This document shows positions 1 to 35,357 of a stretch of 64,000 bases of DNA, in pieces; position 1 is the first letter of the stretch; each line of letters begins with the position of its first letter. Made by a program: the position numbers and the translations under genes. The notes under the pieces are model-generated. The model had not been told where the DNA came from. It searched no databases and saw nothing but the letters and a program-made list of their open reading frames with translations. Source of the stretch: Blasia pusilla (lineage: Eukaryota); the NCBI GenBank assembly GCA_050084515.1, contig CM114271.1:21266001-21330000 (forward strand). The letters run 5' to 3'.

Positions 1-330
1 CTCAAGGCGTCGATCTAAGGTGGTGACACGGGATGATAGACCACCGTTGGCCATGGCCAATAGGGTGGGGGATTTGAGGGCAGCCTTACCTATGTTGGTG
101 AGCTTCCCAACATCCCATGCCTTTCGTCAAGGAGGGCCAGGCATGATTTGGGATGAGGTGACCGAAGCATTGGAGGAGCCTACAGCAGATGAGCGCGAGC
201 GCGCCATGGGGTTCGCTACCGGTACTACGGCCGTTCCAGGGATGACTGAGGCATCCCGGAGATAGGTGTTGGGGCAGGCGATGGACCTCAACTGTCTCAC
301 ATGGATAGTCAGCCTATGTATGGCTGAGCA
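1..330 (+). pseudogene. C-terminal part of a DNMT3-like cytosine-C5 methyltransferase domain (motifs IX-X) in Gypsy pol
   Basis: EPTADERERAMGFATGTTAVPGMTEASRR*VLGQAMDLN resembles DNMT3 motifs IX/X (E.ER..GFP...T...R...LG). One in-frame TAG at 263-265. Same sequence as 23740-24050 on the minus strand. Confidence 0.8.
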
Positions 331-721
331 GAGACAGATGCGAGTGTCATCCATGCCGTCACGTCCACGAGTTGGACCATTGCCTATAGGGTCTGTACAG
401 GCATTGGATGGGGGCAAGAGGAGGAGAGATAGGCACCCATGGACTTCCTGGGACGTCGTTTGAGCAGAGAGTGCAAAGGCGGCCAGAGTAGCACATGTTC
501 ATTTTTCAGATGTAGAGCATGGTGTAGGAGGTCAGAATGGAGTGGCTGTTGCGGAGATGGCTAGGGTTGCTACATAGCAACCAAAGCCGCAGGTTGCGTC
601 CTTTCTGAGTGAGGTCACGATGGAGACTTGGGAGCCTATGATAGGTCTCAAGTTGATAGGAGGAGAGCGACGGTGAGTTCATAGGTTTCTGAGAGGGCAT
701 GTCAATTTTTTTGCCTTCAGT

Positions 722-1209
722 ATGAGAGACTTGGGTACGCTGAAGGGTCTCAGGATACGGATTGAGTTGGCTAGTGATACGCCAATCTTTCCTCGACCCT
801 ACAAGTATTCCGATATGGAGCGAGCCTTGATTCAGAGCAAGAGTCAGGACTTGTTGGAGGCAGGACTTGTGGAGTTATCACATGGGGAGTATGCATCTGC
901 CACAATCATGCCGACGAAGAAGGATATGTATGGCAATTGGACGGATAGGCGGATGTGTGGAGATTACCGTCCTATCAACCGACAGATGAGGTCAGATCGG
1001 TACGCCATGCCTAGTCCTGAGGAGATCTTTGATGCGGTAGGGCATGCAAAGATCTTCAATTCTTTAGATCTCCGTGATGGGTATCATCAGCTTCCTATTA
1101 GGTTGGAGGACAGGGAGAAGATAGCATTATGGGGGATAGATCAGTTCGGGAGAGATTGCTTGTATCATTAGCGGTTCTTACCATTTGGGTTGAAGAACGC
1201 GCCTGCAGA
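722..1209 (+). pseudogene. Gypsy reverse transcriptase, N-terminal half, truncated by a deletion
   Basis: PIFPRPYKYS, RMCGDYRPIN, RYAMPSPEEIFD, LDLRDGYHQ, PFGLKNAPA. The sequence then switches abruptly to Copia ASNHMT at ~1210. Confidence 0.9.
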
Positions 1210-3184
1210 TGCATCAAATCACATGACCTCACAAGCTAAATGGTTAAGTAGTTTGGAGCCGGTGAAAGATCCTGCCATTGTGCTCACACGAGATGACGCT
1301 CAACATCATATCACGCATACCGGTGAAGTTCCAATAGCATCAGATGGTCTTTGTGCTCGTGGAAATTTTCTCTATGTTCCTACCATTGCAAGAAACTTGA
1401 TCTTTGTAGGACACATAGCAGAACAAGGTTATCAAGTGAAGTTTAACGCAGATGGTTATTTCATTGAAACAATGGATGACCAGACTACGATAGCCAAAGG
1501 AACTAGATCTGGCAGAATGTTCAAATTAGATGTTTCTATGCCAGAGATTCAAACAATAATGTATGGTCAAACAAGCTAACAAGTCACAGATCTAAATATG
1601 TGGCACATTTAGATCTGTGACTGGAGACTGTGATTGGAGAATACATTCTGAAATTGCGTTGTGATGGAGGAGGAGAGTATCTTTCAAAAGAGTTTAATGA
1701 CTATTTACGTCAGAATGACATCCAACATCCAGTGACTTACCGTTACAAAATGGAGTGGTTGAGAGGAAGAATGGACATATTGCTGAAGCGGCACAAGCTA
1801 TGCTAAATGAGAAGAACATGCCTAAGGTCTATTGGGCAAAGGCTGTAGCATGTGCAGTCTTCTTAATCAACCGAACTCCAACAGCAAAAGTGTTTGATAA
1901 AACTCCATTCGAAGTCTTCACAAGAAGTAAACCTGATTTTTCCTTCTTGAAAGTATTTGGCTGTATTTTTTATGCTCATATTCCTTCTGAGAGACGTCAG
2001 AAATTAGACCCTAAGTCTGAAAGATGTATCTTCATTGGCTATGCCGATGGAACTAAGGGATATAAGTGCTACGTTCCATCCTCTAGGCATCTTATTGTTA
2101 GTCGGGATGTTGTCGTTGATGAGCTAAAGTCATGCTATGCTCCATCTAAGCCTATTCCACCTCTAAACTTGTCTGTTGAGAGGGAGAATATGACTGTAAA
2201 CCAACAGACATTGTCTTCAACTTCCCCAAGTACTAGCGCAGGATTAGGAGAGGTCCTAGATTCAACATTTAAATCTGTGAGTCCATGGACAGGAAGAGTA
2301 CGTATTTAGTCTGTTGACACTAGTCAGAGCTCGAGTCAGATGTCAGAGGCATCTACCTCTGAACAACAACTTTGTAGATCAAGTAGAGTTACACATCCAA
2401 TTCATAGATTCATAAATGAAGGTTTCCTTGCGACACATCATGCATTTATGGTGACTATCCTTCAAGAACAGGAGTCAAATTGTTTTGAAGAAGCTGCAAG
2501 TAAAGTCGAATGGATTGAAGCTATGGAGGAAGAGCTTGCTGCATTAAGACATCAACAGACATGGGAGCTGGTTGATATACCTTCCGGTAAGGAAGCTATT
2601 GGTTGCAAATGGGTTTACAAAATCAAGCGCAATCAAAATGGTAAAATTAAGAGATACAAAGCAAGATTGGTGGCTAAGGGCTATGCACAACAATATGGTA
2701 TCGATTATGAGGAAACATTTAGCCCTGTTGCAAAGATGGCGACTACGAGAACAGTGGTTGCAGTTGCAATAAGTAAGAAGTGGAGATTACATCACATGGA
2801 CGTCAAGAATGCCTTCTTGAATAGAGATCTATACGAGGAGATATATATGACTCAACCACCTGGATACGAGCATCCCAAGTTTCCATTTCGCATATGCACG
2901 TTGAAGAAAGCTCTATACGGGCTCAAACAAGCTCCAAGAGCTTGGTATGGCAAGATTACATACGTCCTACAAGAGTTGGGTTTTAGGGTATGTGATTCTG
3001 ACTCCTCGTTATATGTCTTGAGAGAACAAGATCATATAGTCCTCATTGTGTTATATGTTGACAATCTCTTGATTAGTGGGAGTACTGAAGAAATGGTACA
3101 ACAAGTCAAGCTTAAGTTACAAGCAAAATTTGATATGAAGGACTTGGGAGACCTCAAGTACTTCCTTGGTATTGAGTTTATCGA

Positions 3185-6291: not shown

Positions 6292-6603
6292 TATTGAAGA
6301 TTGAGTTACAGTCAAGCTCATGAGACACATGAACTGTTACATTTGGTACTCACATGAAGTAGGGAAGCTTAATCTTGGTTAGTTACTTAAGCACGATTAT
6401 CTTAACTACGGTTAGTTAATCCCAGTTAGTCTAACTCTAGACTATGGTTAAAATTAGGGTTAGGGTTGCTTGTACATACCCTATATAATTGAGAAGAGGA
6501 CCAGCCTCCACTCATTCTCTCATTGCAAGTTTCGTTCTCCATGGTAGTGTGTGTGTGTGAGAGCCGTTTTCCACTAGTTACGCTTGTTTAGCAGTTTTCC
6601 ACA
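6292..6603 (+). repeat. Copia 3' LTR
   Basis: Follows the PPT directly. Starts tattg (TGTTG-like), contains tatataa, ends ccaca at the junction with Gypsy RNase H. Confidence 0.75.
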
Positions 6604-8375
6604 CTTAAGTGGTTGATGGAGTATGACAAGCTTACAGGGACGCTTGCAAGGTGGGCTCTATTGTTACACGAGTATGATTTCCAAGTGGTGCATAGACCTA
6701 AGATGCTCAACCACAATGCCAATGGTTTGAGCCGTAATCCATGTCCGAGTCAGCGAGATGCGACTGGAGGTCGTTGGCATGGTGAGAGTGATGAGGAGTT
6801 GGTGCCAAGATGGCACGCGTCTGCCTATTTGGGCTTGTTGGCTATGGAGAGCCAGATTGCTGAGACTTTGATGGAGAGGTTTGATGGAGAGTCCTTAGAT
6901 CCAGAGGCTAGTGAGGAGAGGACAGGTGGCCGAGATATTCACGATGATGGAGTAGTCTTGGAGTACCTATGACTTGGCAGCGTCGCGATCACAGTGGGTG
7001 CTAGAAAGCGGGATCGGATCCTACAGTGAGCCATACGGTTCCGGTGGGAGGGGACACATGTGTTGCGAGTTTGGAAGGATGGTAGAGTACGTGTAGTGCC
7101 TCATCCTTCACAGAGGGCACGTTTGGTGCGTCATGCCCACGGGGAGTTGGGTCAGTTTGGAGTGAAGCGGACGTACAACTTTCTCCAGATACAATATTGG
7201 TGGCGAGGCATGTAGACTGACGTTTGTTGCCAGGTGCATGGTTTGTGATCGGGTCCAAGTATCGTTCAATGCTTTGACTCCACAGTTGCATCCACTTCCG
7301 ATCATGGGTTTAGGTTATAGATGGAGTTTGGATTTTGCAGGACTTCTGCCTTTGACAGAGCGCCATAGTCGTTATGTGTTGGTGATGGACGAGCACTTCT
7401 CAAAATGGATAGAGTTGGTTGCATTGCTTAACAAAGCAAGTGAGGGAGTAGCGTATGCCTTCCTAGATTGAGTGCTGAGTTATTACGGCGCACCAGCTGA
7501 GGTGTTGACAGACCAGGGTACGGAGTTTCGCAAGGAGTTTCAGGCCTTGTGTGATCAGTTGTTGATCGACCATCGCACCACTTCACGAGATCATCTTGAG
7601 GCGGATGGACTAGCATAGAGGGTTTTGTACAAGGTGAAGAAAAGATTACACAAGTATGGCTTGCAGAGAGGTCACCTAGGAGATTGGGACCTCCAATTGT
7701 CGTGGTTGGCAATGGGATAAAGATTCAGCAGGCAGGCATCCTTAGCGTCTTTCTCACCGTACTTGCTACTTTATGGCCGATGGCCGGATTTACCTACGGC
7801 CATTCGTTGAGATGTTGGTGAGGTGTTGAACTTTGATGACCTTGACGTATGGATGCGAGCATGTTCTCAGAGGGCTAAGTTGTTTTGGAGAGTGATGCCC
7901 ATGGCGTTTGAGAACTTGGCGATTGAGCAACATCGGGATACGTTGAGGTATGCGACTATTCGGGGAGGTGATTATCGACCTACTATCCAAAGGTTTGATT
8001 AGGGAGACTACGTCTACTTGCAATAGACGTTATCCACGATGTTGGATGTGATTGTAGGGCGCACTATCTTGAGAGTGCGTGAGGTTTTGCCATGTGGTGT
8101 CCTCTTATTGGAGGGACGTGATGGTATGGTTTGGAAGGACCATGTGCATAAATTTGCGCCATGTCACCTTCTGAACATTGATACTACAGTTGATCCGAGC
8201 TTAGCAGTAGTTCATGTAGGCTTACAATGTATGTTGTGTGGTTCCGCCCGTGGTGCAGCCACTATGCTAGTCTGTGATGGATGTTCGAGCGGATGGCATA
8301 TGACATGTTTGACGCCACCTCTCACTATGGTTCCTCAGGAATGATGGATGTCTCCCAGATGCACATAGACTAGGT
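6604..8375 (+). pseudogene. Gypsy RNase H end, HHCC/rve integrase and C-terminal PHD finger (copy 1)
   Basis: LARWALLLHEYDFQVVHRP, NANGLSR, WSLDFAG, EHFSKWIE, then CMLC...LVCDGCSSGWHMTCLTPPL..VP...WMSPRC (C4HC3 PHD pattern, one Cys lost). Confidence 0.88.
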
Positions 8376-8531
8376 AGTTCTAGATTTTGACTTGTGTCTG
8401 TGACATGGATGACAAGAAGGCGACTAACGATGGGGCCACATGAGCACCCGACCTTTGTGCTAGAGCAAAAAGGCCCCGTGATAGATGACTATCTGGAGTT
8501 AGAGGGTCCCAACCAACAACTAGGGGGGAAA

Positions 8532-9303
8532 ATTGGAGATATTTTGCTAGTCGTCGTCTTGTTTTTTGGATGCCATGAGTAAGCATGGGATGTGCGTGTT
8601 TGTATGTGTATTCGGTGATACGGATGTATGTTGTGTAGAGACGTGTATGCGCACGACGGTTGTCACGTCTTTTAGGATAGATCGATAAGATCTAGTAGAG
8701 CACCTTCACAAGCAATGGAGGACAGGCTCAAGAGGTCGAAGATGATTTGCTGAGGCCCCGAGAAACCTAAGAGAGCAGGTTTCCCCTTCGTTTCGGCTCA
8801 ATTGTAGCTATATTGAAGAACTTACTATTTTGGGTAAATACCATTTTGAGTATATGGTCAAATTTCTATTTTGGGAAGGGGCCCTTGACCTCCTATATCA
8901 TGTCAAGAGCCAAGGAGGTGACTTAGGAGCATAGGTTACCATGGAGAGAGCTTGGGAGAGAGGAGGGGATATACCTCAAGGAGAGAGAGCTTGAGAGCTC
9001 ATTCTTTATTTGTTGAACCTCTTGCCATGAGGCGGCAGAGCTATGGTCCCTTGCCTTGTGAGTGTCACCCAAGTCTCTCATTAGGAGAGTGGGTTTGGTT
9101 TGACATTGAGAGAGACATGTGAGATTGCACAAATGTGAGAGCTATGGTGTTGTGAGACAGATTTGACCTTATTTTATTGGAGATATTTTGGTACTCCTCG
9201 TCTCGTTGTTTGGATGCTATGAGTTAGCATGGGATCGTACGTGTTTGTGTGCGTATTCGGTGACAGCGATGTATGTTGTATAGCGATGTGTATGCGCATG
9301 ATA
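8532..9303 (+). repeat. 3' terminal split repeat B1 (8532-8658) - A (8661-~9156) - B2 (9176-9303) of Gypsy copy 1
   Basis: attggagatatttt...tatgcgcacgacg recurs as attggagatatttt...tatgcgcatgata on each side of an A block starting tgtcacgtctttt. A purine run taggggggaaa precedes B1. Confidence 0.88.
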
Positions 9304-19140: not shown

Positions 19141-19566
19141 TTGGACCATGATCAATTACTTTGCAGGATAACATGGACATAAATATATCTCCCAACCCTC
19201 TATTGGAACCTCTTGATTGGATGGACCATATACATGTGCATCAAAGTGCTTTAACCAAAAGAGTCTTGGCCATGCGGAGGATACAAGTTCAAGGGGACTT
19301 GCCGCCTGGACCGATATTAGCATTGCGCTTACACTGGGATATTCACAATATTGTGTTCATTCCTTGGGAAAGACTGCAAGATTTCATTGAAGGCGAGGGT
19401 GATGGAGATGGGATGAATCCCACAAATTTCTGGAAAGGAACGTCAAGATGTTTGAAAGATGCAGGAGAGATCGAACAAGAGGATCCATCATACGTGTCGT
19501 GCGCATACACATCGCTACACATCGCTACCCTAAAGTAAGCTCCAATCTCTCTCATTCTCCACCATC

Positions 19567-20048
19567 TCACACCATAGCTCTCAAAGGTGTGCACTCTCTC
19601 TCATGTCAAACCAAACCCACTCTCCTAATGAGAGGCTTGGGTTACACTCACAAGGCAAGATACCATAGCTCCGCCGCCTCATGCCAAGAGGTTCAACAAA
19701 GAGAGAATGAGCTCTCAAGCTCTCTCTCCTTGAGGTATACCCCTCCCCTCTCCCAAGCTCTCTCCATGGTAACCTATTCTCCCAAGTCACCTCCTTGGCT
19801 CTTGACCTGATGTAGGAGGTCAAGGGCCACTTACCAAAAATAGTAAGTCAATCATATTCTCAAAATGGTACTTACCTAAAATAGTAAGTTCCTCAATATG
19901 GCTCCAAATGAGCCGAAACGAAGGGGAAACCTACTATCTCAGGTTTCCAAGGGCCTCAGCACGTCACCCTCGAGCTACTGGGCGTGTCCTCCACTACTCA
20001 TGAAGGCACTCTATCAGATCTCACCGATCTATCCTAAAAGACGTGACA
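19567..20048 (-). repeat. Repeat A2 (3' copy), flanked by B1 (20051-20172) and a short B2 (19495-19566)
   Basis: Near-identical to 28462-28943. Both B blocks end gcacgaca on the element strand. Purine tract ctaggggggag (20173-20183) precedes B1. Confidence 0.9.
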
Positions 20049-20352
20049 GTTGTCGTGCACATCGCTACACAACATACATCGCTGTCATCGAACACACACA
20101 CAAACACGCATGATCCAATGCTAACTCATGGCATCCAAACAACGAGACAAGAAGTACCAAAATATCTCCAATCTCCCCCCTAGCTGGTGGTTAGGTCCCT
20201 CTAACTTAAGATAGCCATCTATCCCTACCTACCGTGACATACATCTCTCGGACGCTAAGAGCAAGAAGATCGGGTGCTCATGTGGCCCCATCGTTAGTCG
20301 CCTCCTTGTCATCCATGTCACAGACACAAGTTGGAATGTAGAACTACCTTCT

Positions 20353-20495
20353 CTATGTACATCTGGGACACATCCATCGTCCCTGAGGAACCCTAGTGAG
20401 AGGTGGCGTCAAACATGCCATCCTCTCGAACACCCATCACAGACTAGCATCGTGGCCGCACCACGGGCAGAACCACACAACATACAATGCAAGCC
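20353..20495 (-). pseudogene. PHD finger at the integrase C-terminus (copy 2)
   Basis: Minus strand reads CMLCGSARGAATMLVCDGCSRGWH-(small deletion)-LTPPLTRVPQGRWMCPRCT*. Confidence 0.85.
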
Positions 20496-20499
20496 TGCA

Positions 20500-21620
20500 G
20501 GAACTACTGCTAAGCTCGGATCTACTGTACCATCAATGTTAGGAAGGTGACATGGCGCACAATTACGCACATGGTCCTTCTATACCATACCATCGCGTCC
20601 CTCCAGCAAGAGAACACCCGATGGCAAAATATCACGCACTCTCAGGATAGTGCGCCCTGCAGTCACATCCAACGTCGTCGGTGCCGTCTGCTGCAAGTAG
20701 ACATAATCTCCTTGATGAAACCTCCGGATAGTTGGTCGATAACCACCAACCCGAATAGTCGCATACCTCAACGTATCCCGATGTTGTGCAATCGCCAAGT
20801 TCTCGAACGCCATGGGCATCACTCTCCAAAATAACTCAGCCCTCTGAGAACATGCTCGCACCCATACATCTGGGTCATCAAGGTTCAACACCTCACCAAA
20901 GACATCTCGCGAATGGCCGAGGTAAATCGGCTCGGCCATAAAGTAGCAGCACGGTGAAAAAGACGCGCTAAGGATGCCTCGCTCTTTGAATCAGTATCCC
21001 ATCGCCAACCATGGAAACTAGAGGTCCCAATCTCCTAGGTGACCTCTCTGCAAGCCATACTTGCGTAAACCCCTCTTCACTGTCTGCACAACTCTCTCCG
21101 CTAATCCATCCGCCTTGGGATGATCTCGCGAAGTCGTGCGGTGGTCGATCAGCGCCTGATCACACAAGGCTTGGAACTCATCGCGAAACTCGATACCGTG
21201 GTTTGTCAACACCTCAGCCGGTGTGCCATAATGACTCAGCACTCTGTCAAGGAAGGCATAAGCTACTCCCTCACTCGCTTTGTCAGGCAATGCAACCAAC
21301 TCGATCAACTTCGAGAAGTGCTCGACCATCACCAACACATAACGACTATGACGCTCCGTCAAGGGCAAAGGTCCTGCAAAATCCAAACTCCATCTATACC
21401 CTAAGCCCATGATCGGTAACGGATGCAACTATGGAGTCGGAGCATTGAACGATGCTCGGACCCGATCACACACCATGCACTTGGCAACAAACTGCTGAAC
21501 GTCAGTCTGCATGCCTCACCACCAATACTAAATCTGGAGCAAGGCATGTCCGTCGCTTCACCCCAAAGTGACCCAACTCCTCGTGGGCATCTTTGCACTA
21601 GTCGTGCTCTCTGCAAAGGA
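20500..21620 (-). pseudogene. Gypsy DDE integrase (HHCC + rve)
   Basis: HEELGHFG, LHPLPI, WSLDFAGPLP, VEHFSK, YGTPAEVLTNHGIEF, HPKADGLAERVVQTVK. Confidence 0.92.
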
Positions 21621-21969
21621 TGCGGCACTCACGCGTACTCTGCCATCCTCCCAAACCCTCAAAACATGTGTCCCCTCCCAACGGAACCGCCCGGCCATTT
21701 GTGAGGATCCGATCCCGCTCTCTAGCATCCATGGTGCTTTAACGCTTGCCAATATGTCTGAAGATACTCCAAGACTACTCCATCATCATGAATATCTCGG
21801 CCACTTGTCGTATCCTCACCGGCCTCGGGATCAGGACTCTCCACTAGACCTGCGCCATCGAAGTCTCCACACTCGGCTCTCCATAGCTAACATGCCTAAA
21901 TAGGCGTCGTGCCATCCTGGCACCGACTCCTCATCACTCTCTCCATGCCATCGTTTGCGCCGATGCATC

Positions 21970-23407
21970 TCTCGACTCGGGCATGGGTTACGACTCAACC
22001 CATCGCATCCTGGTTGAGTGTCCCAGGTTTATGTACCACCTGAAAATCATACTCCTGCAACAACAGAGCCCATCTCGCAAGCTTCCCTGTAAGCTTGTCG
22101 GACTCCATCAACCACTGAAGTGGTTGATGATCAATGATGATGGTAAAGGGGTTGCCGAATAAGTAACACTTGAAATGCATGACAGCCCACACCGCAGCCA
22201 AGCACTCACCCTCAATCGAGCTATACTTTGCCTCTGCAACATTGTTCGAGCGGCTAGCGTAAGCCACCACAAACTCTCTACCCTCATCATCATGCTGGGT
22301 GAGCACCGCTCCAAGCCCCAACATGCTCCAATCTGTGTGCAACTGGAAAGGACGCCCCCTGATCGGTCTCCTCAAGATGGATGCGGACGTCAACTTGTCC
22401 TTGAGCAACTGAAATGCTCGCTCCTGCTCATCCCCCCGGTGCCACTCATGATCCACCTTGGTCAGCAAGGTCAGTGGCTTCACAATCGAATTGAATCCCT
22501 TGACGTATCGCCGATAGAAGTTTGCCAATCCCATGAATGCGCAAACACAGCTCACATCTGTAGAGCGTGGAATGTGTGAGATAGCCTCTACCTTTGTCTG
22601 CTAAACACCAAGGACCCCTGGGTATATCGTATGACCCAAATACTCAATCTAGTCGTAGAAGAACTTGCACTTGCCTGGATGTAGCTTCAGCCCATGTAAT
22701 TGCAATCGTCTAAACACCTCCTCTAGATGTTGCTCATGCTCCTCAACCGTGGCGCTAAAGACTACGATGTCATCAATATAACACCTAGCAAAATCCAGAC
22801 TAGCCAAGATCCTATCCATGACCCTCTGAAACTCAGCCGGGGCGTTCTTAAGCAAATGGTAAGAACCGCCTTTGTTACAAACAATCCTTCCGTGAGGATC
22901 GATGCCCCAAAATGCCATCTTCACTTTGTCCTCCAATCGATGGCGGTGATGATGGTATCCGGCTTCATAAATCAATGAATTGAAGACCTTTGCGTGACCA
23001 ATTGCATCAAAGATCTCCTCAGGGGTGGGCATGGCATATCTATCGGACTTCGTCTGCCGATTGATAGGTCGGTAATCCCCACACATCCGCCTATCCGTCC
23101 ACTTGCCATGCACATCCTTCTTGGCGGGCATGACAATTGCAGATGCATACTCCCCATGCGACATCTCCACTAGTCCTGCTCCGACCAAGTCCTGGCTCCT
23201 ACTTTGAATCATAGCCCTCTCCATATCATTGTACCTGTAGGGTCGTCGGAAGATAGGCATATCACTCAACAACTCAATGCGGATCCCCGGTCCCTTTAGC
23301 GTACCCAAATCCTCCATGCTTAACGCAAAGCAGCTCCTATAACTCCGAGGGCGATGTATTCGGCGCCGCTCTCCTCCTGTCAACTTAGGGCCCATATCGG
23401 CTCCCAA
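21970..23407 (-). pseudogene. Gypsy reverse transcriptase and RNase H
   Basis: RMCGDYRPIN, LKNAPAEFQRVMD, YIDD, LKLHPGKC, FMGLANFYRRYVKGF, LHTDWS, YSSIEGECLA, IDHQPL, LARWALLLQEYDF. Confidence 0.95.
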
Positions 23408-23739
23408 GTCTCCATCATGACTACGGTAGGACTCTCCGGTAGCTGGTATCGGTGGTTGCTATGGTGCAACCCCGTCTCGAACAACAACACTCGGCCGCTC
23501 TCCTACACCAAGCGCAAACTCGATCTCCTCCGCGTGCGGTGCGAAACCACGCTTCGATGTTGTGGCTATCATCTCTTTTGCGTGCACTGCAAAACATCCC
23601 AAGAAGTCCAAGGGTGTCTCTCCCGATCTCCCCTCGTGCGTAGATCTCCTCGGGTCTCGCCCCCAGCCACTGCCTCCATTGTCTCGGTAGGCATGGGGCT
23701 CACCAACGCAACCGTTGTGATCTGTCGCGATCTCATACG

Positions 23740-24703
23740 ACGCTTCTGAGCCACTCCCAAGCTCAGGATCCATGTCAAGCGATTCAGGTCCATCGCTTTG
23801 ACCCAAGACATGGTGTCGTGATGCCTCGACATCGATGGTACCTGCCGTCACTCCTGTGGGAAATCCCATCGCTCGCTCTCTCTAGTCGGCGTTGGGCTCC
23901 ACCAACCGCTGAACCTGGTCATCCCAAACCAAGCCAGGACCGGCCTCCTTGTATGCATAGGAAGCGGGAAAACTCACAGACGTGGGTAAGGCTGCCCGCG
24001 GCCTGCCTACCCTGTTGACCACAGTCAACGGTGGTCGATCATCGTGCCTCACCGTGTGATCGGCGACTGGATCCGAATGGAATCCACTAACAAATGGGAG
24101 GGGCGCTCCACTCTGATACGCCCTCCATAACTTTGCATGGGGCACCAAGTTGGTCCACCATAGACGCGGCGATGGGTTCTAGAACCTACACTCGCCGCAT
24201 CCAAGAATTTCTTCTTTTGGGCGATCCAAGCACGCTTTTTGATGAGCACTCGTCACCACTCGTGACCTGGAGTCTCCTAAGATCGGCACATTCTCTTGAA
24301 TGTAGGCTAGAGAACGAGACTGGCGCTCCTGCAACTGCCGTAAGACCCTCAACATCTCCCAAAACAACCTGGACCGAGTGTCGCCAACCCGCTGCCTCGT
24401 CAAAGACTCGATTGTACGACGACATGGCCAACCGGCAATGACCAAATCAATGGTCCCTACCCGCTCTAAGTCCTGCGCCCCCAACAACAAAATATCCCTC
24501 GGTAGGGAACTCTGGTACCCATGTACTGCGGACGCAGACAATAAGTCGGGAAAATGTAGGCGTAATTGCGCCACATGTCGTAGTGAGACGCGCCTCGCAA
24601 CATCATCACTCTCCACATACAGGTACTGCTGTACTCACACTCTTGCCTGCAAAACAGCAGCTAACCCGGTGCTAATCCCTCCAAAGAGATCTAACACTCG
24701 AAT
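23740..24703 (-). pseudogene. DNMT3-like DNA cytosine-C5 methyltransferase domain embedded between protease and RT
   Basis: Motifs in canonical order: I IRVLDLFGGISTG (~24703), II YVESD, III RDI, IV DLVIAGWPC (Cys ~24422-24424), VI ENVP (~24295), LDAASVGSRTHR followed by frameshifted RLWWTN (VIII), IX RERAMGFPTGVT, X SRHHVLGQ/AMDLN. Confidence 0.88.
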
Positions 24704-25132
24704 ACCCTCCTCCGGGATACACCACACAATGGGTGTGGTATCCAAGGGTGTGATCGTAGCACTCCCTGTTACCTTGGGTTCCTCAGACCCGTCATGCTCT
24801 GGTGCAAACGCCTCGCTCCACGCGGTCTGCACGTGCTCATCTGCCAATCGTTGAAGCTCCTCAATCGAGCCCCACAACGGCACCTCTCCTCCACCGAATG
24901 ATGCAGCTACCATAACACTCCTCTCCATAGAAATGTCAGGAACGGGAGTATCCTCTGCATGGACATGTCCCTCAATCAAATCACTAGGCCAAGTGATGGC
25001 ACTACTAAATGCTGCTAAGGTCGCCATCTCTCCTGGCCGTTGCTTGATCACTGCACCCGTGAATCGAACTAGTAATGAGCTAAGGCGCCCATCACCTGAC
25101 TGCCATCCTGGTCTATAGGACGCTGACTCCTC

Positions 25133-25801
25133 TCAATAATCTAGGGAAAACCCCATCGGGTATAACATTGCTCCACCAACCAAGACGTCGTAGGACTGTG
25201 CATCAGTCACTATCGCCTTGGCGCGCACCACGGACTCATCTATAGGATGTCCCGGGAAAATCCTTACCACGACCTCTTGTCGGGTGATATACTGTGTGGT
25301 ACTCGCTCCACCCAAGGATGTCTGGATCCGGAATGGACAATGCTCCACATCGGCTTTCGTCAAGCCCAATCCTCTGAATGACGCTTTCCCCAACATCAAG
25401 GGTTGCGCTCCTGAATCCAACAAGACGAGCTCCGGACTAAAAGCTCTACCTCCAAAACTCACCAAGTGGAAGACCTCTCCTCGGTTATCCAACAACACAA
25501 CACCAGGAGAAGCCATGGCACGCTCTATCGCGGGTCTAGCGGGCATCTCCGCCATCCTAGCAGCCGCAGCCTGCCATGAATTTGACGTGGACGGCCCTAG
25601 CATCCGCTCCAAGGGCAGGTCCATCACCTCCTCTGCCATCACCTTTGAACGTGATGCAGGAACTCCAACTCCGCGCTCACATAGTGAAGCGGCCAGCCAA
25701 AAAGCCTCGGCGGGCGTACCCCCCAACGTCATAACATCAGAAGCAGAAAATAAAGGAGTGCGGTACACAACGGTGGCCGCCCCCAACAACGTGCTCGACA
25801 C
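25133..25801 (-). pseudogene. Retropepsin-like aspartic protease region
   Basis: VLLDSGAQP catalytic motif and YDVLVGG (DxLLG-like) motif, positioned between gag and the DNMT domain. Confidence 0.85.
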
Positions 25802-26260
25802 ATGCCCCTCCTAAGCATCAACAATAGGAGTCGTTGCACTCGCTTCTCCCATCGCCCTTCGTGCTTGCACACCAACAACATCACCAACTCTCCAGGAACT
25901 TTGATGAGGACCCATCGATGGGGTCCTCATCGCTTCGGACAACGTGAAAGACTGAGGAAGCCTAGTAAATCTTCGGCTTCCCGCATTTGTGGATCCAACT
26001 CGCGGTCGTTCCCGCGTCACAACTGCGGTGGCCTCCATCTGGGCAACCCCGCACATCCATCCAAGATCCTCCAGATCTCTGGCTGCTCCATATGATGTCG
26101 ATGCCACGGATCCGGAATCGGGTAACCTCAATGCCATAGCGGCAATTTGCTCCTATAGCTGCTGTATCTGAGCAGCCATCCCAGCCTCACGTCCGGCGTC
26201 TCCCTCGACGTGTCTAGGTGGTGGTACTCTACCTCCTCCACGGGCAGCTCCACCACCCTG

Positions 26261-27424
26261 TCAGGAAACTCCAGCTCCTCGTCTCCCAACGGGACCACGT
26301 GGTGCACGATCTCTAGGCCCACCCGGACCGGCTACTCGATCTGGTGCCCTCTCTGGCCCTCGGTCCGGACGTAACTCAGGATGTAAACTGAAACACCTGG
26401 CGCGTGTATGACCATACCTCTGACAATAGTCACACTGATAACCTCCTGGTGCAGCACCATCTCCTCCTCCATGTTGAGGCATACGTCCATGACCCAGAAG
26501 AGTGCAATCACGTTGATGATGGGCTCCACCACATGACCAACAAGTAATAGTAGGCGGCTGTTGCTGAGCGGCATATGAAGGCGCAGGTCTCTGTGGCACG
26601 GCCTCCCGGTATCCTCCCTGAGCTCGTGGTGCCACAGTCGACCTATCTCCGAGTCCAGGTTGCTGCATAGCTGGTGCAGACAATCCTGACTGCTCTCGCC
26701 CAGAACCCATGGTGGCTACGCTCTCCTCCACCATGTTGCGCTCAATGTTCTCGGCGGTCCTAAAAACATCTCTCAACGTAGGGGAGGTGTTCATAAGAAG
26801 CACCCCCTCCCGCACCCGTGTCCGCAGGGTCCGGTCCAGCATCGCGTACCATGACTGGATAGCCTGAGCCTCTATCACCCCCTGAGTGACGTTGATCAAC
26901 CGGCGCAAGCGAGTGTAAGCCTCACGCAAACTCTCACCCGGGCGCCTCTGGAAGTCGTGGATGCTCCGCAACTTCTCCGTCCGTACCCCCTGGTAGCTCG
27001 CCCTCAACTCAGCAAAGAACTCAACCACAAGGTTGAACCTGGGACGAACCCGACTAGACGGTGCAACTGCTCCCGTGCGAGTGACCCCTCCTAAAACGTC
27101 ACTAGTGGAAGAGGTAGTAGCCTCTCCTGACTCCTCCTCCTCGTCTGGGAACGGCTCCGTCCATGACACATAATGTGGGTCATAGTAGTGCCTCCACGCC
27201 TCGATCTCACATGCATATCTATGAGAGAACTCATGGTAATCGTCCATGGGCGCCCCCTCTAAATGCTCAAACATACCGTTCCATGTTGTAAATGGGTTGA
27301 ACTCTCTAGAGTTCCTGGCCCGCTGGGAGTCACACCAACTCCTAAACTCTGCTATAAAATCGTGCAACTCAATCGTGCCTACTGCACCTGAAAACCTACG
27401 CGGTCCTCTACCCCGGTCGTCCAT
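26261..27424 (-). CDS. Gag with two CCHC zinc knuckles
   Basis: 387-aa ORF. FQRRPGESLREAYTRLRRL (major-homology-like region), CWSCGGAHHQRDC and CDYCQRYGHTRARC. Confidence 0.88.
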   Translation of the reverse strand: MDDRGRGPRRFSGAVGTIELHDFIAEFRSWCDSQRARNSREFNPFTTWNGMFEHLEGAPMDDYHEFSHRYACEIEAWRHYYDPHYVSWTEPFPDEEEESGEATTSSTSDVLGGVTRTGAVAPSSRVRPRFNLVVEFFAELRASYQGVRTEKLRSIHDFQRRPGESLREAYTRLRRLINVTQGVIEAQAIQSWYAMLDRTLRTRVREGVLLMNTSPTLRDVFRTAENIERNMVEESVATMGSGREQSGLSAPAMQQPGLGDRSTVAPRAQGGYREAVPQRPAPSYAAQQQPPTITCWSCGGAHHQRDCTLLGHGRMPQHGGGDGAAPGGYQCDYCQRYGHTRARCFSLHPELRPDRGPERAPDRVAGPGGPRDRAPRGPVGRRGAGVS

Positions 27425-28461
27425 CTCGTACGCTCAACTGGTAGGACCACTCACAATGTGTGGCGATGTGCTCACACCCTCCCCCTTGTCTGACGATGAC
27501 ACAGAAGGAGGTCGAGGTGGTCCCTCACGTGGAGACCCTCGGAACCTCGCGCCACTCCGCGTAAAACCTCTAGAGCTACTCTCGAGTTCACCACCTCGCC
27601 TCTCAAAGTCCCGAACGGACTCCGTGATGACCCTCGTGCCCCTCTCACCTGATCACTCTGAACCTCGTGAGGAATCCCTCAATCACTCATCCCAAACATG
27701 CGGCACTCGATCTACACTCTCTCTTCCCGAGACGTGTAACGTGCGGCAACACGCGGCGTGGTGCGGCAAATCGACCAGGCTATCATCTCATCGAAAACCT
27801 ACCCTCAACTCCGGACATACCACACAGGTCTATGTCCCCTAAACCACATACATAAATAATGCTCTCAGCATCCACATACCCAATATCCCCAAATAAATCC
27901 CAGAATCCCTCACACGTGCAGGGTAAAGGACCAGAATGGGTAACCTGAACACATGTCGATGTCGCTCCTCAGCAACTGCAAATCTCGACCCCAACTCGAT
28001 TGTGGAGACAACTCCTCCAATCAGCAAGTCATACTCCTCCCGTACTGATGCTGCTCAAAACTCAACGATAGACAGTACGGTCCCAGCGGAACGGTGCGGC
28101 GTTGCAGGCGGCACGAAATGGCTACGAACGGCACGGCCCTCGATGGTGGGATGCGGCACTCGGCGGCATACCCTCCTCAATCAATAATAATCCCACACTC
28201 TTCTCCACAATGACGGTGCGTCTCCGCGATCGAGATGGTGCGGTGCGGCCACGAGCGGCAAGGCGCGGCAATCGACGGCGCGTTGCGGCTACGGGCGTCA
28301 CGGCACGATACTCGATCGTCGTCGAGCGGCTACCAATCACAACATAGCAGCATGAAATCAAAACTCAAACACCATAACCGGAGGTCATCTGCAATCAGTG
28401 GTTGATGAAGAAACTGCGATGACGGTGGCGGCCAAAACAAAGTACGTGGTGGCGACGCAAG

Positions 28462-28943
28462 TCACACCATAGCTCTCAAAGATGTGCACTTTCTCTCATG
28501 TCAAACCAAACCCATTCTCCTAATGAGAGGCTTGGGTTACACTCACAAGGCAAGATACCATAGCTCCGCCGCCTCATGCCAAGAGGTTCAACAAAGAGAG
28601 AATGAGCTCTCAAGCTCTCTCTCCTTGAGGTATACCCCTCCCCTCTCCCAAGCTCTCTCCATGGTAACCTATTCTCCCAAGTCACCTCCTTGGCTCTTGA
28701 CCTGATGTAGGAGGTCAAGGGCCACTTACCAAAAATAGTAAGTCGATCATATACTCAAAACGGTACTTACCTAAAATAGTAAGTTCCTCAATATGGCTCC
28801 AAATGAGCCGAAACGAAGGGGAAACCTACTATCTCAGGTTTCCAAGGGCCTCAGAAGGTCACCCTCGACCTATTGGGCGTGTCCTCCACTATTCATGAAG
28901 GCGCTCTATTAGATCTCACCGATCTATCTTAAAAGACGTGACA
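28462..28943 (-). repeat. Repeat A1 (5' terminal repeat) of Gypsy copy 2
   Basis: Starts tgtcacgtctttt on the element strand. Identity to A2 stops at gctatggtgtga. No B block and no TGG-type PBS follow. Confidence 0.9.
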
Positions 28944-31899
28944 TACGTTTTCTATTTCTGTGCTTATGGCCCGCAAGACTACCAACATCGAAAACAACTA
29001 GCCATAAATATGTAAATATAGTAAACTCTCTATATTCTTTTTTTGTTCTCTTCTCATGTCATGGTTTGATTGTAAGTTATATTTCTTCTCGTGTCTTTCT
29101 CATTAAACTAATCTTAATTCTTGTATAATTTAGTTCATAACCCTGATCTCCCAAAACACATGTCAGAATGCCTTCCATATGTTGCATGTAGAATTTTAAA
29201 ACATGTGGTAACAGCCCATTGAATAACTTTTAACATTGGACATACCACTGGATCTTACAGGTCAAAAATTCCTAAGACAGGACCTGGAAGTAGGCCACGT
29301 GGCCAGAAGATCATTCAAGGGGAAAGTTGGAAACGTGGATGTCAATGTCGCTTTTCCAGTTTCAGAGTTGAGGGATCTTGTTCATGCTGCAAAGATTGTT
29401 TACAAGCATAGACTACATATCGACAAGGAAGGGAAGCCATGTCACGGTTCACACGATCCGACATGCAAGGACACGCCAAAGATGTATGCCCCAAGAATAT
29501 CACACAATCTGAGATCGTATATTAAAGAGAGGCTTCGTCTTGGGGTGAATCCCCACCAGATTCTGTCGGAGCATGGTGTCACATAGAAGATGCGATCTGA
29601 GATGGATCCAAATTTCGAAGAAAGCATGAAGAGAGATGATTTCTTGCGAATGCATAATATCCTCAATGTGAAGAAAGAGCTAAATATGGAGACCTTTCAA
29701 TATTGTATGGGTGAAAATGAATCATTGAGATATTTTGTGACCCTTTATCTGGACAAGGTGTTCTTTTATGAACCATATATAGAGAATGCGAGGCCCTTCA
29801 TCTTAGGCTTCCAAAGCCAATGGCAATTGCAAACATTGGTCAAGCTTGGACACAATAGTGTATTAAGTATGGACTGTACATTTGGAACAAATTGAAGCAA
29901 GGTAAGTTCACTACATGTTATCATGGTGTTTTGAAAAAAAATGTGCATCACATATTTATTAAGCAAAGTCTCAGACATTGTGGTAATGGTTTGTTGGGTG
30001 TGTGGATTGTATGAGTGCAGTTCCCATTATACACTATTTTGGTATTTGATGAGCATCATACCGGGATACCAATGGCATGGGTTTTGACAAGTAGCTCAAA
30101 AGAGGTACATTTGGTTAGGTGGATGAAGGCAGTGGTCGGGAAATGTAAGACAATCCAACCAAATTGGGAGCCAAATGCAGTCATTGTGGATGATGCAAAT
30201 GCAGAGCAAAATGCCTTGAGGTTTGTCCATCCACTTCCTATCCATATTGTATCTTGTTATAAATAAGCAACTGAATTCTACTATTTTTACCACATTTACA
30301 ATTTCGGCATCCACCATGCAGAAATGGAAGGCATTATAGCCATGCAAATTCAATGACGTTATCTATTTATCATTCCATGTAGAGAGACATTTGGAGGTGT
30401 AAACATCATTTTGTGCCTTTGGCATGTACGACACGATTGGTTGAAGCAATTGAAGCGCAAGGTCCACTGCCCCATTTTTAAGAGCACAAATGTCACAACG
30501 TCTTGGAGAAATAATGTATGTCAATCGTTGTGGTACCTACACGAGAGGTGATGTCTTATATGACGCAAGAAATGCCTTGCAACAGTTCTATGCAGACTTT
30601 AGCGGAGAAGTTGCTTTTGTGAATTACATCCAGACTTATTGGGAGCCCAAACTAGGCAAGTTCATTGAACCTCTCATGTCTCTTGGATTTTCCCACCACT
30701 GGATCTTTAGGTTATGTAATTTACATTAAATATGTGGTGACTCTTGCTGGTTTTTTTTTGCAGAAAAGTGGGTTAGAGCAGCTAGGGACTACCCTCATGC
30801 AAACCAAGACACGAATGCTGCTATTGAAGCTTATCACGGAAGCATGAATGCAGTATTAAATAATTATAACAAGAGGTTGGCTAGAAGAAGAGGTGACTAC
30901 CTTGTGTGGAAGCTCCTCGAGTCCATTGAAGCATGGTATTTCCACATACAACTCTTAAAAAAGAAAGGCTTTGTGCAAAATGCAGCACAGGAGCAATATA
31001 TCAACAATGCAGTTCTAAAAGGAAAAGCTATTGCGGCCAGTGACGTTGTACTGACTCAAACGAGGGGTAATATACGCATGGCACGAGTAAAGAGCCAGAC
31101 AGTTCTCAATAAGTGGTATGAAGTCTACAATTATGACATTGAGTGGGAACATTGTGAGTGTCCATGGTCTCTTAAGGGTAACATTTGTAAGCATATGGTA
31201 AGTTTCACTCGATGATTATTCCATGAAGTAATATCCTTTGCTCTTTAATGGTTCAGAAGAAAATATGAATTATGAAGTAGAAACCCACTGAATGTGGAAG
31301 TGGAAAATAGATTGCTGCTTTGTTGCAGGAAAGCTTTGATGAGGCCGATTTGGTGAGGGTATTAGGAACAAGATTGGGTACAACACAAGGAGGAATATGC
31401 CATCTACAAATGGTGAGGATCGAATCAGACACTACCTTACGTCCATCGTTGGCAAACACCTTGGATCTCAATGAATTACCAGCAACAGAAGCAGGTATCT
31501 TCTCCTGTCAATGAATTCATACTTAGATTTTTCCTTGTTGTTGAGGTGTCTTATTTGTTTATGACATATCCTTTTTTAAGTTATGGCTACTATGTGGTAT
31601 GTTTCAAAAGGCATTCTAGATGAAGATAGCACCATATTTTCTTCATATATGGAAGATGGATATATGGGCACGCTTCTGCACCATCCACCAATTGCTGAAA
31701 GATCTCCATCGATGTTAATGGGAATACATGAGAGTTCTAATAGAATTCTTCCAAGTCCATCTCCCTCTATGGAGCAAATGGTCATTACTATGGACAAGTT
31801 ATACATTGAACTACGCACTAATTGTGGAGGAAACCTGCAATTTTTTACATTAGTATGTAAGATGTTGAGAGAAACCAATGGTAGAATAGAGACAGCAAA

Positions 31900-35352: not shown

Positions 35353-35357
35353 GATAC

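Follow-up and report, generated by a model that had tools for sequence, protein, structure and literature searches.

A dead Ty3/gypsy retrotransposon of Blasia pusilla and its relatives: a DNMT3-type methyltransferase domain upstream of a candidate read-through stop

Does a retrotransposon of land plants carry a cytosine methyltransferase as part of its own coding plan, and if so, how would the enzyme be made? The question arises from a 64-kb stretch of Blasia pusilla DNA on contig CM114271.1 (all of it hereafter called the window), in which a minus-strand element (copy 2) had been predicted from its letters to be a Gypsy retrotransposon with a DNMT3-like methyltransferase between protease and reverse transcriptase (RT). 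A single reading frame, Pfam matches and a pair of long terminal repeats (LTRs) bear this out. Positions 19567–28943 (−) are a dead 9.4-kb Ty3/gypsy LTR retrotransposon, with two direct LTRs and the order protease, RT, RNase H and, in last place, integrase by which Ty3/gypsy elements are recognized (Table 1).

In copy 2, gag (with CCHC motifs), protease, the DNMT3-like C5 methyltransferase, RT and RNase H share one frame and are followed by the integrase and a PHD finger. This minus-strand frame runs from 27433 to 21995, spans gag through RNase H and is broken by in-frame stops. The nine ORF starts listed in the original prediction as sharing a frame do lie in it, since all are offset from the stop-to-stop pieces by multiples of three. 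With ten in-frame stops in 1813 codons and several frameshifts, copy 2 cannot encode anything. A target-site duplication was not found at copy 2, where the flanks beside the LTRs differ, nor was a TGG-type primer binding site after the 5′ LTR or a purine-rich tract before the 3′ LTR; relatives have a common non-purine GCACGACA[AG]C ahead of the 3′ LTR. The CpG o/e ratio is 0.81–0.87 in the element interior, a mild depletion, as against 0.52–0.56 in flanking DNA, figures that say little either way about methylation. In ten other ORF stretches of the window, Pfam searches found no host genes, returning transposon domains (Pol_BBD, SH3_Tf2-1, Chromo) or no match. The diverged second copy that had been claimed at 1–330 is real, lies on the plus strand and has the methyltransferase domain in the same position ahead of RT.

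Table 1. Features of the two element copies in the window
Feature	Positions	Strand	Basis and remarks
5′ LTR, copy 2	28462..28943	−	482 bp; direct repeat with 19567–20048, 97.1% identity, 14 mismatches in 482, gap-free
gag, two CCHC-like zinc knuckles	26261..27433	−	390-codon open piece; alignable with gag of Marchantia P0001; gag query matches type-A proteins
Aspartic protease region (LLDSGAQPLMLGK)	25133..25810	−	Translation LLDSGAQP and alignment; relatives match Pfam Asp_protease_2
Protease–methyltransferase linker	24728..25132	−	Aligned to Marchantia P0001
DNMT3-like C5 cytosine methyltransferase domain, broken	23798..24727	−	Motifs, PF00145, DNMT3A and family matches
Tail of upstream ORF, 3′ of methyltransferase	23462..23797	−	Translation and alignment
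In-frame TAG then CAACCA, candidate programmed read-through site	23459..23461	−	Between DNMT and RT; conserved in relatives
Reverse transcriptase	22649..23458	−	Pfam RVT_1, E 2.1e-19
RNase H	21995..22600	−	Pfam RT_RNaseH, E 5.4e-35
Integrase, several stops and frame changes	20412..21659	−	Pfam rve, E 1.5e-11 (21428–21018); tblastn with L001 ORF2, 61% identity over 417 columns
PHD finger, C-terminal half, after integrase	20359..20424	−	Aligned to the L001 ORF2 C terminus, itself Pfam PHD, E 2.6e-10
3′ LTR, copy 2	19567..20048	−	Direct repeat with 5′ LTR
Copy 1 methyltransferase C-terminal part and tail	8..523	+ (frame 2)	Truncated by window start; 56% identity to Marchantia P0001 residues 1094–1261
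Copy 1 boundary stop, TAG and CAACCA	575..577	+	Same as copy 2
Copy 1 reverse transcriptase, then interrupted	641..1210	+	Copia-type piece next (Pfam Pol_BBD)
Copy 1 integrase, PHD finger, 3′ LTR	6580..9115	+	DNA 83.8% identical to copy 2 over 2563 columns

The motif strings on which the prediction was built are largely where they had been placed. VLDLFGGISTG, YVESD, DLVIAGWPC, ENVP, RLWWTN and RERAMGFPTGVT lie in the main reading frame of copy 2, but two others do not: DAASVGSRTHR is in a different frame (ORF 24049–24252), so that a frameshift pair flanks it, and VLGQAMD is the reading of copy 1, the copy 2 sequence being VLGQS and then, after a frame shift, ...AMDLNRLTW. The copy 2 domain is interrupted by three in-frame stops (24635–24637, 24179–24181 and 23882–23884) and by frame changes around motif VIII and after VLGQ. 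For domain searches we used the translation of 25132–23459 with stops masked as X. This query matched Pfam PF00145 with an E value of 1.4e-4 and 21.8 bits, 0.2 bits short of the curated cut-off of 22 bits, and the broken window copy is therefore not itself filed as PF00145. The Pfam comparison suggested with the prediction thus narrowly fails on copy 2 but succeeds on intact relatives, which score 32.5–51.1 bits (P0021, 32.5; P0001, 35.6; P0027, 38; L001 ORF1, 51.1).

Against the PDB, the masked translation matched DNMT3A (E 4e-6), then DNMT3C, DRM2 and DNMT3B. A profile from 21 family domains matched DNMT3A (2.8e-23), DNMT3C (3.8e-22), DNMT3B (3.7e-21), DRM (2.6e-14) and M.HhaI (2.6e-10), with DNMT2 far weaker than DNMT3A/B/C (about 1e-8). 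An AlphaFold model of the domain from a relative (L005; pLDDT 91.9, pTM 0.91) was compared with the PDB by Foldseek, and the top matches listed were all DNMT3A/B/C (best E 2.4e-20, TM 0.83; 20–23% identity). The structural comparison with DNMT3A proposed at the outset accordingly gives a DNMT3 fold for the modelled relative, and the parallel drawn there between the motif strings and the DNMT3 catalytic domain is upheld: sequence, profile and fold matches all put DNMT3 nearest among solved methyltransferases. In the conventional numbering of C5-methyltransferase motifs, motifs I (FxGxG), IV (PC), VI (ENV), VIII (RxR), IX and X occur in order in the relatives and are split by stops and frameshifts in copy 2. 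The alignment to DNMT3A is linear and spans motifs I to X in order, with no circular rearrangement; in plant DRM the motif order is circularly rearranged. Pfam found neither PWWP nor ADD in P0001, P0021 and L001 ORF1, and for want of these N-terminal readers we call the domain DNMT3-like or DNMT3-type, not a full member of the DNMT3 family. On sequence and modelled fold, the intact family domains are assigned as DNMT3-type cytosine methyltransferases.

A protein database search returned at least 35 polyprotein matches, down to E 1.4e-98, and a wider search returned 929 representatives at E≤0.001, of which 378 reached E≤1e-10. Among the matches listed, the closest named relatives come from Marchantia polymorpha and Sphagnum fallax, where they are annotated as "hypothetical proteins", and they show that the DNMT-carrying family occurs in land plants. 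In the Protein Atlas the match is to a generic PF00145 cluster, 'commonest Streptophyta', beside phage clusters. Mp_8g17980 has a UniRef name that starts with "DNA (cytosine-5".

The domain lies after protease/gag or before RT (an arrangement we call type A) in 48 of the 196 database proteins that bear it. At the DNA level, the C terminus of the DNMT is less than 900 nt from the N terminus of RT in 46 elements, namely 44 metagenome loci and both window copies; close kin of the window element are absent among the 80 metagenome loci searched, the best having ~75% DNA identity. That the domain is an in-frame part of gag-pol and not a bystander, as predicted, therefore stands insofar as it is integral and takes the same position in both window copies, the 48 proteins and the 46 elements. 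The notion of a single uninterrupted gag-pol does not, because a stop is conserved between DNMT and RT. The prediction had also made its case depend on other family members having the domain at this position: the type-A position does recur, but a sister lineage (type B) has the domain elsewhere.

Type B consists of green-algal gypsy elements, its named members coming from Haematococcus, Monoraphidium and Cymbomonas. The methyltransferase domains of types A and B are mutually nearest (30–39% identity, E 1e-27 to 1e-52), and a PHD finger follows the integrase in both lineages. The type-B order is RT, RNase H, DNMT, integrase, PHD, whereas type A has the DNMT between protease and RT. In a midpoint-rooted tree of family domains only, all 55 type-B rows fall on one side of a branch with an SH-aLRT value of 89, and the A/B label changes once. 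F..G...G, GWPC, ENV and RERAMGF are among the strings invariant in 14 type-A sequences (alignment A1); PC-Q and R.R..W.N are invariant over 21 type-A and type-B domains (alignment A2).

Selection on the coding sequence was estimated between relatives. For the DNMT domain, dN/dS is 0.131 (L001 versus L002, dS 0.26), 0.122 and 0.103; it is 0.11–0.16 for the protease, 0.04–0.05 for RT and 0.25–0.34 for the linker, and the tail after the methyltransferase is the least constrained stretch (0.35–0.59). [quoted passage not shown] With its position, catalytic motifs and predicted DNMT3 fold all kept, the methyltransferase is a stable, selected part of the element. The degenerate state of the window copy, just under the Pfam cut-off, might by itself suggest that the domain was captured as a bystander, stems from a chimeric assembly or is a chance string of motifs. 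This reading is refuted, and has next to no probability: the same position and frame are found in both window copies (~60% alike), in proteins from Marchantia and Sphagnum and at 44 metagenome loci, and the domain shows purifying selection and a DNMT3 fold.

A domain kept by selection could still do something other than methylate DNA: it could methylate the genomic RNA as an m5C methyltransferase, or serve as a nucleic-acid- or SAM-binding module or an assembly scaffold. The domain of KnitGypsy-Dnmt3, an element of Klebsormidium nitens, gave no methylation in yeast, a result that its authors call inconclusive, and RNA methylation is raised in the same paper for a LINE-borne DNMT (de Mendoza et al., 2018; PMC5890265, in the portions cited here). 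We nevertheless consider such a role improbable, in view of the PC(Q), ENV and R.R residues invariant in type-A and type-B members, the low dN/dS across the whole domain, and nearest structures that are the DNA enzymes DNMT3A/B/C, with DNMT2 a distant match.

How the enzyme would be made turns on the stop that separates DNMT from RT. At this boundary, copies 1 and 2 alike read TAG CAACCA. The type-I read-through motif is UAG followed by CARYYA (PMC5382211, in the passage describing it), and this motif, with the downstream ORF in frame, is present in both copies. Across the 46 elements a stop stands at the homologous site in 42, the remaining 4 having none: the context is exactly TAG and CARYYA in 7, TAG CAACCC in 22 and TAA CAACCC in 11, and a second stop replaces the CAA codon in 2. 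Directly after the stop, 40 of the 42 have a CAA or CAG codon. In 33 of the 46, RT keeps the DNMT frame and lies 16–24 codons past the stop, and frame differences are confined to visibly decayed copies. Many of the 46 are close copies of one another, so these counts represent about five independent lineages. In the intact elements L001 and L003 the boundary stop is the sole interruption, lying in L001 between a 1369-codon and a 1047-codon ORF. Among annotated proteins, three Marchantia models (P0001, P0002 and P0006) end ~79 residues past the domain; three others (P0004, P0005 and P0007) and the Sphagnum model P0024 skip over the boundary site; and five type-A proteins (P0021, P0022, P0077, P0104 and P0108) continue from DNMT to RT with no intervening stop. 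The boundary stop looks programmed rather than a product of decay, in which case gag-PR-DNMT would predominate and RT-RH-INT would be added to it by read-through.

The stop could instead be a true terminator, RT-RH-INT being expressed by splicing, re-initiation or a subgenomic RNA, or the stop-bearing elements being non-autonomous. The commonest context, CAACCC, does depart from CARYYA, TAA is found in 11 of the 46 elements, and gene predictors put introns over the site in the Marchantia and Sphagnum models. The in-frame RT close behind the stop and the CAA or CAG codon next to it speak against termination, as do L001 and L003 with no other stop, and no RNA splice joint crosses the site among the joints listed; we regard a true terminator as rather unlikely. 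The elements resemble plant RNA viruses with type-I read-through (tobamoviruses) in having UAG followed by CAACCA, CAGTTA or CAATCA with the polymerase downstream in frame. The present candidate site differs in belonging to a retrotransposon, in lying between an accessory enzyme and RT, and in having CAACCC in most copies.

The window element has sibling copies that are abundant in DNA and show low-level transcription. Three RNA runs gave 457, 470 and 513 reads on the element, with the first mate mostly on the plus strand (e.g. 13.4 versus 0.51), which, provided the libraries follow the common stranded protocol, means sense RNA. Nearly all of these reads are 95–99% alike to the element, with 99% or more in only 8 of 457, 22 of 470 and 21 of 513, and they therefore come from sibling copies. 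Depth over the DNMT bins is only 0.3–7. In the DNA of the best-matching run the family is very abundant, with 156,273 contig records.

The reading we prefer, at a probability of roughly 0.68, is that the locus is a dead Ty3/gypsy copy with the coding plan gag(CCHC)–protease–DNMT3-type–leaky UAG–RT–RNase H–integrase–PHD, and that intact members would produce the enzyme at Gag level, perhaps for methylation of cDNA or integration sites. It is very likely that ribosomes normally terminate at the conserved UAG. The enzyme would then be part of a Gag-PR-DNMT precursor more plentiful than RT and integrase, which would arise by read-through only. Within the Gag precursor, the enzyme may be packed into the virus-like particle and released there by the protease. 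Once free, it may methylate cytosines of the new element cDNA or of the DNA at the integration site, and the PHD finger linked to the integrase might read histone tails for targeting.

A related possibility is that the enzyme acts on the host genome and not on its own cDNA, modifying insertion-site chromatin, competing elements or host genes, or disguising new insertions as long-silenced DNA. Production at Gag level would supply enzyme well beyond the needs of a single cDNA, the PHD finger suggests chromatin reading, the family DNA is very abundant, and possible effects on the host methylome are discussed by de Mendoza et al. (2018; PMC5890265, in the portions cited here). It would require that a Gag-linked enzyme reach the nucleus, and we hold it to be unlikely, if worth keeping in view. 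Returning to the preferred reading, we tentatively extend it to a broader proposal that is possible but doubtful: a gypsy lineage of land plants, at any rate of bryophytes, abundant and transcribed, may make a working DNMT3-type de novo enzyme at Gag-level dosage via a conserved leaky UAG, part of the cytosine methylation of such genomes, at new insertions or elsewhere too, may be written by the transposon and not by the host, and the module may have been re-slotted once inside the polyprotein between a mainly green-algal lineage (RNase H, DNMT, integrase) and a bryophyte lineage (protease, DNMT, RT).

Cytosine methylation is the main route by which plants silence transposons, so an element with its own de novo methyltransferase would invert the usual roles. 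Because the family occurs in the genetic model Marchantia polymorpha, what a transposon stands to gain by methylating DNA can be addressed by experiment. In bryophyte annotations, DNMT gene counts can be raised or muddled by element copies (e.g. Mp_8g17980). A conserved UAG-CARYYA would also be an unusual form of recoding, since an accessory enzyme would precede the stop together with Gag.

The kind of element is already known. The precedent cited with the original prediction is correct: a 2018 study reported KnitGypsy-Dnmt3 from Klebsormidium and DNMT-bearing elements from Symbiodinium (de Mendoza et al., 2018; PMC5890265). Its further remark, that no characterised land-plant example is known to it, is right in that we found no paper on one but needs amending in that members are already annotated as unnamed Marchantia and Sphagnum proteins. 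In a literature search with most subscription journals and supplements outside its coverage, no DNMT-carrying retrotransposon was described for a land plant, and neither land-plant presence nor the present layout was found in print; one passage of a 2019 opinion paper has methylase-encoding transposons absent from land plants "such as tracheophytes" (PMC6338049).

Compared with animal DNMT3A/3B/3C, which provide the best sequence and fold matches and have the same motif order (I-IV-VI-VIII-IX-X), the element domain is only 20–23% identical, is longer between motifs VIII and IX, and is part of a retrotransposon precursor. Among mobile elements, SymbioDIRS-Dnmt3 and SymbioLINE-Dnmt of Symbiodinium are likewise retrotransposon-borne DNMTs, and the DIRS ones methylate CG in yeast; their element classes differ (tyrosine-recombinase DIRS; LINE), as does the host kingdom (PMC5890265, in the portions cited here). 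KnitGypsy-Dnmt3 is closer: by the account in the same portions of that paper, it is, like the present family, an intronless Gypsy-type LTR element with a non-rearranged DNMT3-type domain in its coding region and key residues conserved, and its Ka/Ks is <0.2, as against 0.10–0.13 in the relatives here. Its domain lies in the Pol polyprotein ORF, whereas ours is upstream of the conserved stop with gag and protease, a comparison made by description only. Its repeats are DIRS-like (Fig. 4c legend, PMC5890265); here there are two plain 482-bp direct LTRs, the only direct LTR pair within 18500–30500. Since the present element has no DIRS-like repeats, KnitGypsy-Dnmt3 is named as the closest known kind and membership is not assigned. 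No Klebsormidium-named protein is among the matches listed in the protein searches, in which most matches are unnamed. KnitGypsy-Dnmt3, the sole gypsy-type precedent found, has a charophyte alga as its host, whereas the named hosts of the present family are land plants.

The interval assigned by the original prediction to a DNMT3-like domain within a gypsy polyprotein (23740–24703) is enclosed by a minus-strand LTR retrotransposon of 9,377 bp (copy 2; Table). A single minus-strand reading frame spanning 27433 to 21995 encodes, in this order, a gag that has a pair of CCHC knuckles, an aspartic protease reading LLDSGAQPLMLGK, a stretch of C5-methyltransferase motifs, reverse transcriptase (RT) and RNase H. 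Alignment with an intact relative, which matches Pfam PHD (2.6e-10) at its C-terminus, located a PHD finger 3' of the integrase. Directly after the 5' LTR no TGG-type primer binding site was found at 28437–28461; the RNA-sense sequence there resembles a tRNA 3' end (...CGCCACCA), not a tRNA complement. No purine-rich tract was found at 20049–20075, before the 3' LTR. A GCACGACA[AG]C-like string just ahead of the LTR start TGTCA is common to the related metagenome loci L005, L066 and L074.

Table. Features of the two methyltransferase-carrying elements and of neighboring sequence (window positions).
Feature	Position	Strand	Details
LTRs of copy 2 (direct repeats, 482 bp each)	19567–20048 and 28462–28943	minus	97.1% identity, 14 mismatches, 0 gaps
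RT of copy 2	main frame	minus	Pfam RVT_1 2.1e-19
RNase H of copy 2	main frame	minus	Pfam RT_RNaseH 5.4e-35
Integrase core of copy 2	downstream, shifted frames	minus	Pfam 1.5e-11
Boundary stop of copy 2, between methyltransferase tail and RT	23459–23461	minus	TAG then CAACCA
Boundary stop of copy 1, homologous place	575–577	plus	TAG CAACCA
Sequence splitting copy 1 after RT	1211–6579	plus	~5.4 kb
220-bp unit, three tandem copies	18502–19161		100, 90, 71% to first; adjoins 3' LTR of copy 2
Chromovirus-type gypsy fragment	35330–35911	plus	SH3_Tf2-1 E 1.7e-16; Chromo E 2.5e-14
Decayed RNase H/integrase-like ORF run	33570–35253	minus	near chromovirus-type fragment
Piece resembling gag of the DNMT element	11327–11581	minus	42% over 85 aa
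Piece resembling RNase H region of the DNMT element	55691–55891	plus	42% over 67 aa

Copy 2 is a dead element. Ten in-frame stops, including the one at the methyltransferase-RT boundary, interrupt the 1,813 codons of its main frame, and an eleventh (21995–21997) closes the stretch. Three fall inside the methyltransferase part (24635–24637, 24179–24181 and 23882–23884), and in alignment to the closest named relative the frame changes near motif VIII and again past VLGQ, and the sequence right behind the catalytic Pro-Cys is scrambled; breaks are far more numerous in the integrase region. The motif strings quoted in the original prediction are all present in the window, but DAASVGSRTHR lies in another frame, and is therefore flanked by frameshifts, and VLGQAMD is a reading of copy 1, the diverged plus-strand element cut by the window start. 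Divergence of ~3% between the LTRs suggests insertion ~1 million years ago, an order of magnitude only, at the rice rate of 1.3e-8 per site per year, which may not be that of the host. The sequence splitting copy 1 looks like a nested insertion because part of it is a decayed pol piece of Copia type (Pfam Pol_BBD E 2.1e-10 on 1172–4058). The gag-like and RNase H-like pieces elsewhere in the window are probably remnants of related elements.

The broken window copy alone gives modest but consistent evidence for a methyltransferase: it scores 21.8 bits (E 1.4e-4) against PF00145, just under the cut-off of 22 bits, and its best matches among PDB sequences are DNMT3A (4e-6), then DNMT3C, DRM2 and DNMT3B, with bacterial M.HaeIII at just 0.23. 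With 32.5 to 51.1 bits, intact relatives clear the PF00145 cut-off. A profile built from 21 family domains matches DNMT3A at 2.8e-23, DNMT3C at 3.8e-22 and DNMT3B at 3.7e-21, ahead of DRM (2.6e-14), M.HhaI (2.6e-10) and DNMT2 (near 1e-8), and the family's motif order is linear, unlike the rearranged order of DRM. An AlphaFold model of the domain of L005, the sister of the Marchantia-plus-window group on the domain tree (mean pLDDT 91.9, pTM 0.91), retrieved only DNMT3A/3B/3C catalytic domains among the top Foldseek matches listed (20–23% identity; best match E 2.4e-20, TM 0.83 on target). Family evidence thus settles the domain, by sequence and predicted fold, as a DNMT3-type C5 methyltransferase, bearing out the identity first proposed. 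PWWP and ADD domains were not found in the precursor by a Pfam scan of relatives.

Selection on the domain is indicated by dN/dS values between intact metagenome elements of 0.131 (L001 versus L002), 0.122 and 0.103; dS is 0.26 and unsaturated for the first pair, exceeds 1 for the less reliable L003 pairs and is saturated for L004/L005 pairs. Other parts in the same pairs give 0.11–0.16 (protease), 0.04–0.05 (RT), 0.25–0.34 (linker) and 0.35–0.59 (tail). The catalytic-motif columns F..G...G, GWPC, ENV and RERAMGF are invariant in 14 sequences with the methyltransferase placed as in the window, after protease or before RT (type A); PC-Q and R.R..W.N are invariant in 21 domains that also include type B, where it lies between RNase H and integrase.

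The claim that the domain is part of gag-pol was upheld as to the common frame from gag to RNase H, but a conserved stop splits methyltransferase from RT. Some deeper type-A proteins lack this stop. It recurs at the homologous place in copy 1, at a protein identity between the copies of just ~58–65%. Of 80 related loci taken from metagenome contigs, 44 contain both the C-terminus of the methyltransferase and the N-terminus of RT. Adding the two copies in the window gives 46 elements, which represent ~five independent lineages because many are close copies; 42 of them have a stop 16–24 codons upstream of the RT domain, and four lack it. TAG is followed by exact CARYYA (CAACCA, CAGTTA or CAATCA) in 7/46 elements; TAG CAACCC occurs in 22, TAA CAACCC in 11, and in two a second stop replaces CAA. 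Methyltransferase and RT share one frame in 33/46, the remaining 13 being visibly decayed. In the intact loci L001 and L003 the stop is the sole interruption between the upstream ORF (1,369 codons in L001) and a 1,047-codon ORF. Some Marchantia gene models stop ~79 residues past the domain; others, and a Sphagnum model, reach RT by omitting exactly the boundary stretch. From these comparisons we take the stop to be programmed and set the decay reading aside. In tobamoviruses and others, UAG followed by CARYYA serves as the type-I read-through signal (PMC5382211). The conserved stop, its context and the gene models lead us to read the element as gag-protease-DNMT, a leaky stop, then RT-RNase H-integrase-PHD, with a probability of about 0.7 that read-through occurs. 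The automatic models P0004, P0005, P0007 and P0024 (Marchantia, Sphagnum) contain an invented intron over the stop, which fuses methyltransferase to RT and loses the tail; counts of DNMT genes may be skewed by such models.

Among proteins of polyprotein size, a search scored on the methyltransferase portion gave at least 35 matches. The best among those listed are "hypothetical proteins" of Marchantia polymorpha, such as Mp_4g09160, whose intact ORF of 1,278 aa encodes gag, protease and methyltransferase (55% identity, E 1.4e-98); one listed match is from Sphagnum fallax and the remainder from environmental assemblies. The Marchantia and Sphagnum records place the family in land plants. At E<=0.001 an exhaustive HMMER search yielded 929 cluster representatives, 378 of which pass E<=1e-10; many are 1,000–3,400 aa long. 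When every collected protein was mapped for gag, protease, methyltransferase, RT, RNase H and integrase, two arrangements emerged: 48 of 196 methyltransferase proteins are type A, 73 type B and 75 uninformative fragments (48, 171 and 76 of 295 after an extra search from a type-B seed). Three green algae, Haematococcus lacustris, Monoraphidium neglectum and Cymbomonas tetramitiformis, supply the named type-B members. Loci L045–L058 and the type-B proteins form a large sister gypsy group with a PHD finger at the end; one of its proteins carries the label of a bacterial MAG (Minisyncoccia), which presumably reflects contamination or mis-binning. The domain tree (n=111: 35/35 complete type-A, 45/153 complete type-B and 15/27 undetermined proteins, the picks being random, 15 loci and the window) has a branch (SH-aLRT 89) with all 55 type-B rows to one side, and the A/B label needs to change only once; as a quick, midpoint-rooted search with no outgroup, it does not order the arrangements or separate one capture from two. 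The window groups with Marchantia proteins, L004 and L005 in a set of nine, all type A (support 100), on a long branch (0.77) that reflects the broken state of the copy.

Reads from three RNA-seq runs whose species label matches that of the best DNA run (6–12% of each run) were mapped on 20049–28943, giving 457, 470 and 513 reads. Nearly all are 95–99% alike (only 8, 22 and 21 reach >=99%) and are therefore assigned to sibling copies, not to copy 2. First mates lie mainly on the plus strand (e.g. 13.4 versus 0.51 in the first bin), so the RNA is in the element's sense if the libraries are of the usual stranded kind; depth is 0.3–7 over the methyltransferase bins. In the DNA run 156,273 contig records map to the element, and the family is therefore highly repeated there. 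At 23882–23884 all covering main-strand RNA reads (5/5, 3/3 and 11/11) and most of the DNA depth carry a sense codon; siblings are thus unbroken at that place. Five RNA reads (run X22) and two DNA contigs (X1) join 20172 to 28462, with ~31 nt of other sequence between the 5' LTR and the final ~124 nt of the internal region. This suggests a short internally deleted family derivative that is also transcribed. A fragment matching that internal tail lies at 9176–9290, right after the LTR of copy 1.

The coding plan, fold and motifs, selection, conserved stop with its context, and sibling transcription are the observed basis for a likely mechanism. Termination at UAG would make Gag-protease-DNMT the main product, so that the enzyme would be produced alongside Gag in excess over RT and integrase, enter the particle within the Gag precursor and then be freed by the protease. 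It could methylate new cDNA or nearby DNA, in the particle or the pre-integration complex, and the integrase PHD finger may read histone tails and guide integration. De Mendoza et al. (2018; PMC5890265) propose cDNA methylation for their DIRS elements; no methylation was seen in yeast with the Klebsormidium domain, a result the authors call inconclusive, as human DNMT3B failed too.

Retrotransposons with a captured DNMT3 are a published kind (PMC5890265). A 2019 opinion describes methylase-encoding transposons as absent from land plants such as tracheophytes (PMC6338049), and we found no land-plant member described in the literature searched, a set that leaves out most subscription journals. 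The family is of solid interest for plant epigenetics because Marchantia is tractable. The published Klebsormidium nitens element KnitGypsy-Dnmt3 shares with the window family the gypsy domain set, an intronless DNMT3-type domain and purifying selection. Compared by description only, the window family has plain LTRs and, with respect to its conserved stop, carries the domain on the same side as Gag, whereas KnitGypsy-Dnmt3 has a DIRS-like repeat arrangement according to the paper's legend and carries it in the Pol ORF according to the paper; the named hosts of the window family, unlike that of KnitGypsy-Dnmt3, are land plants.
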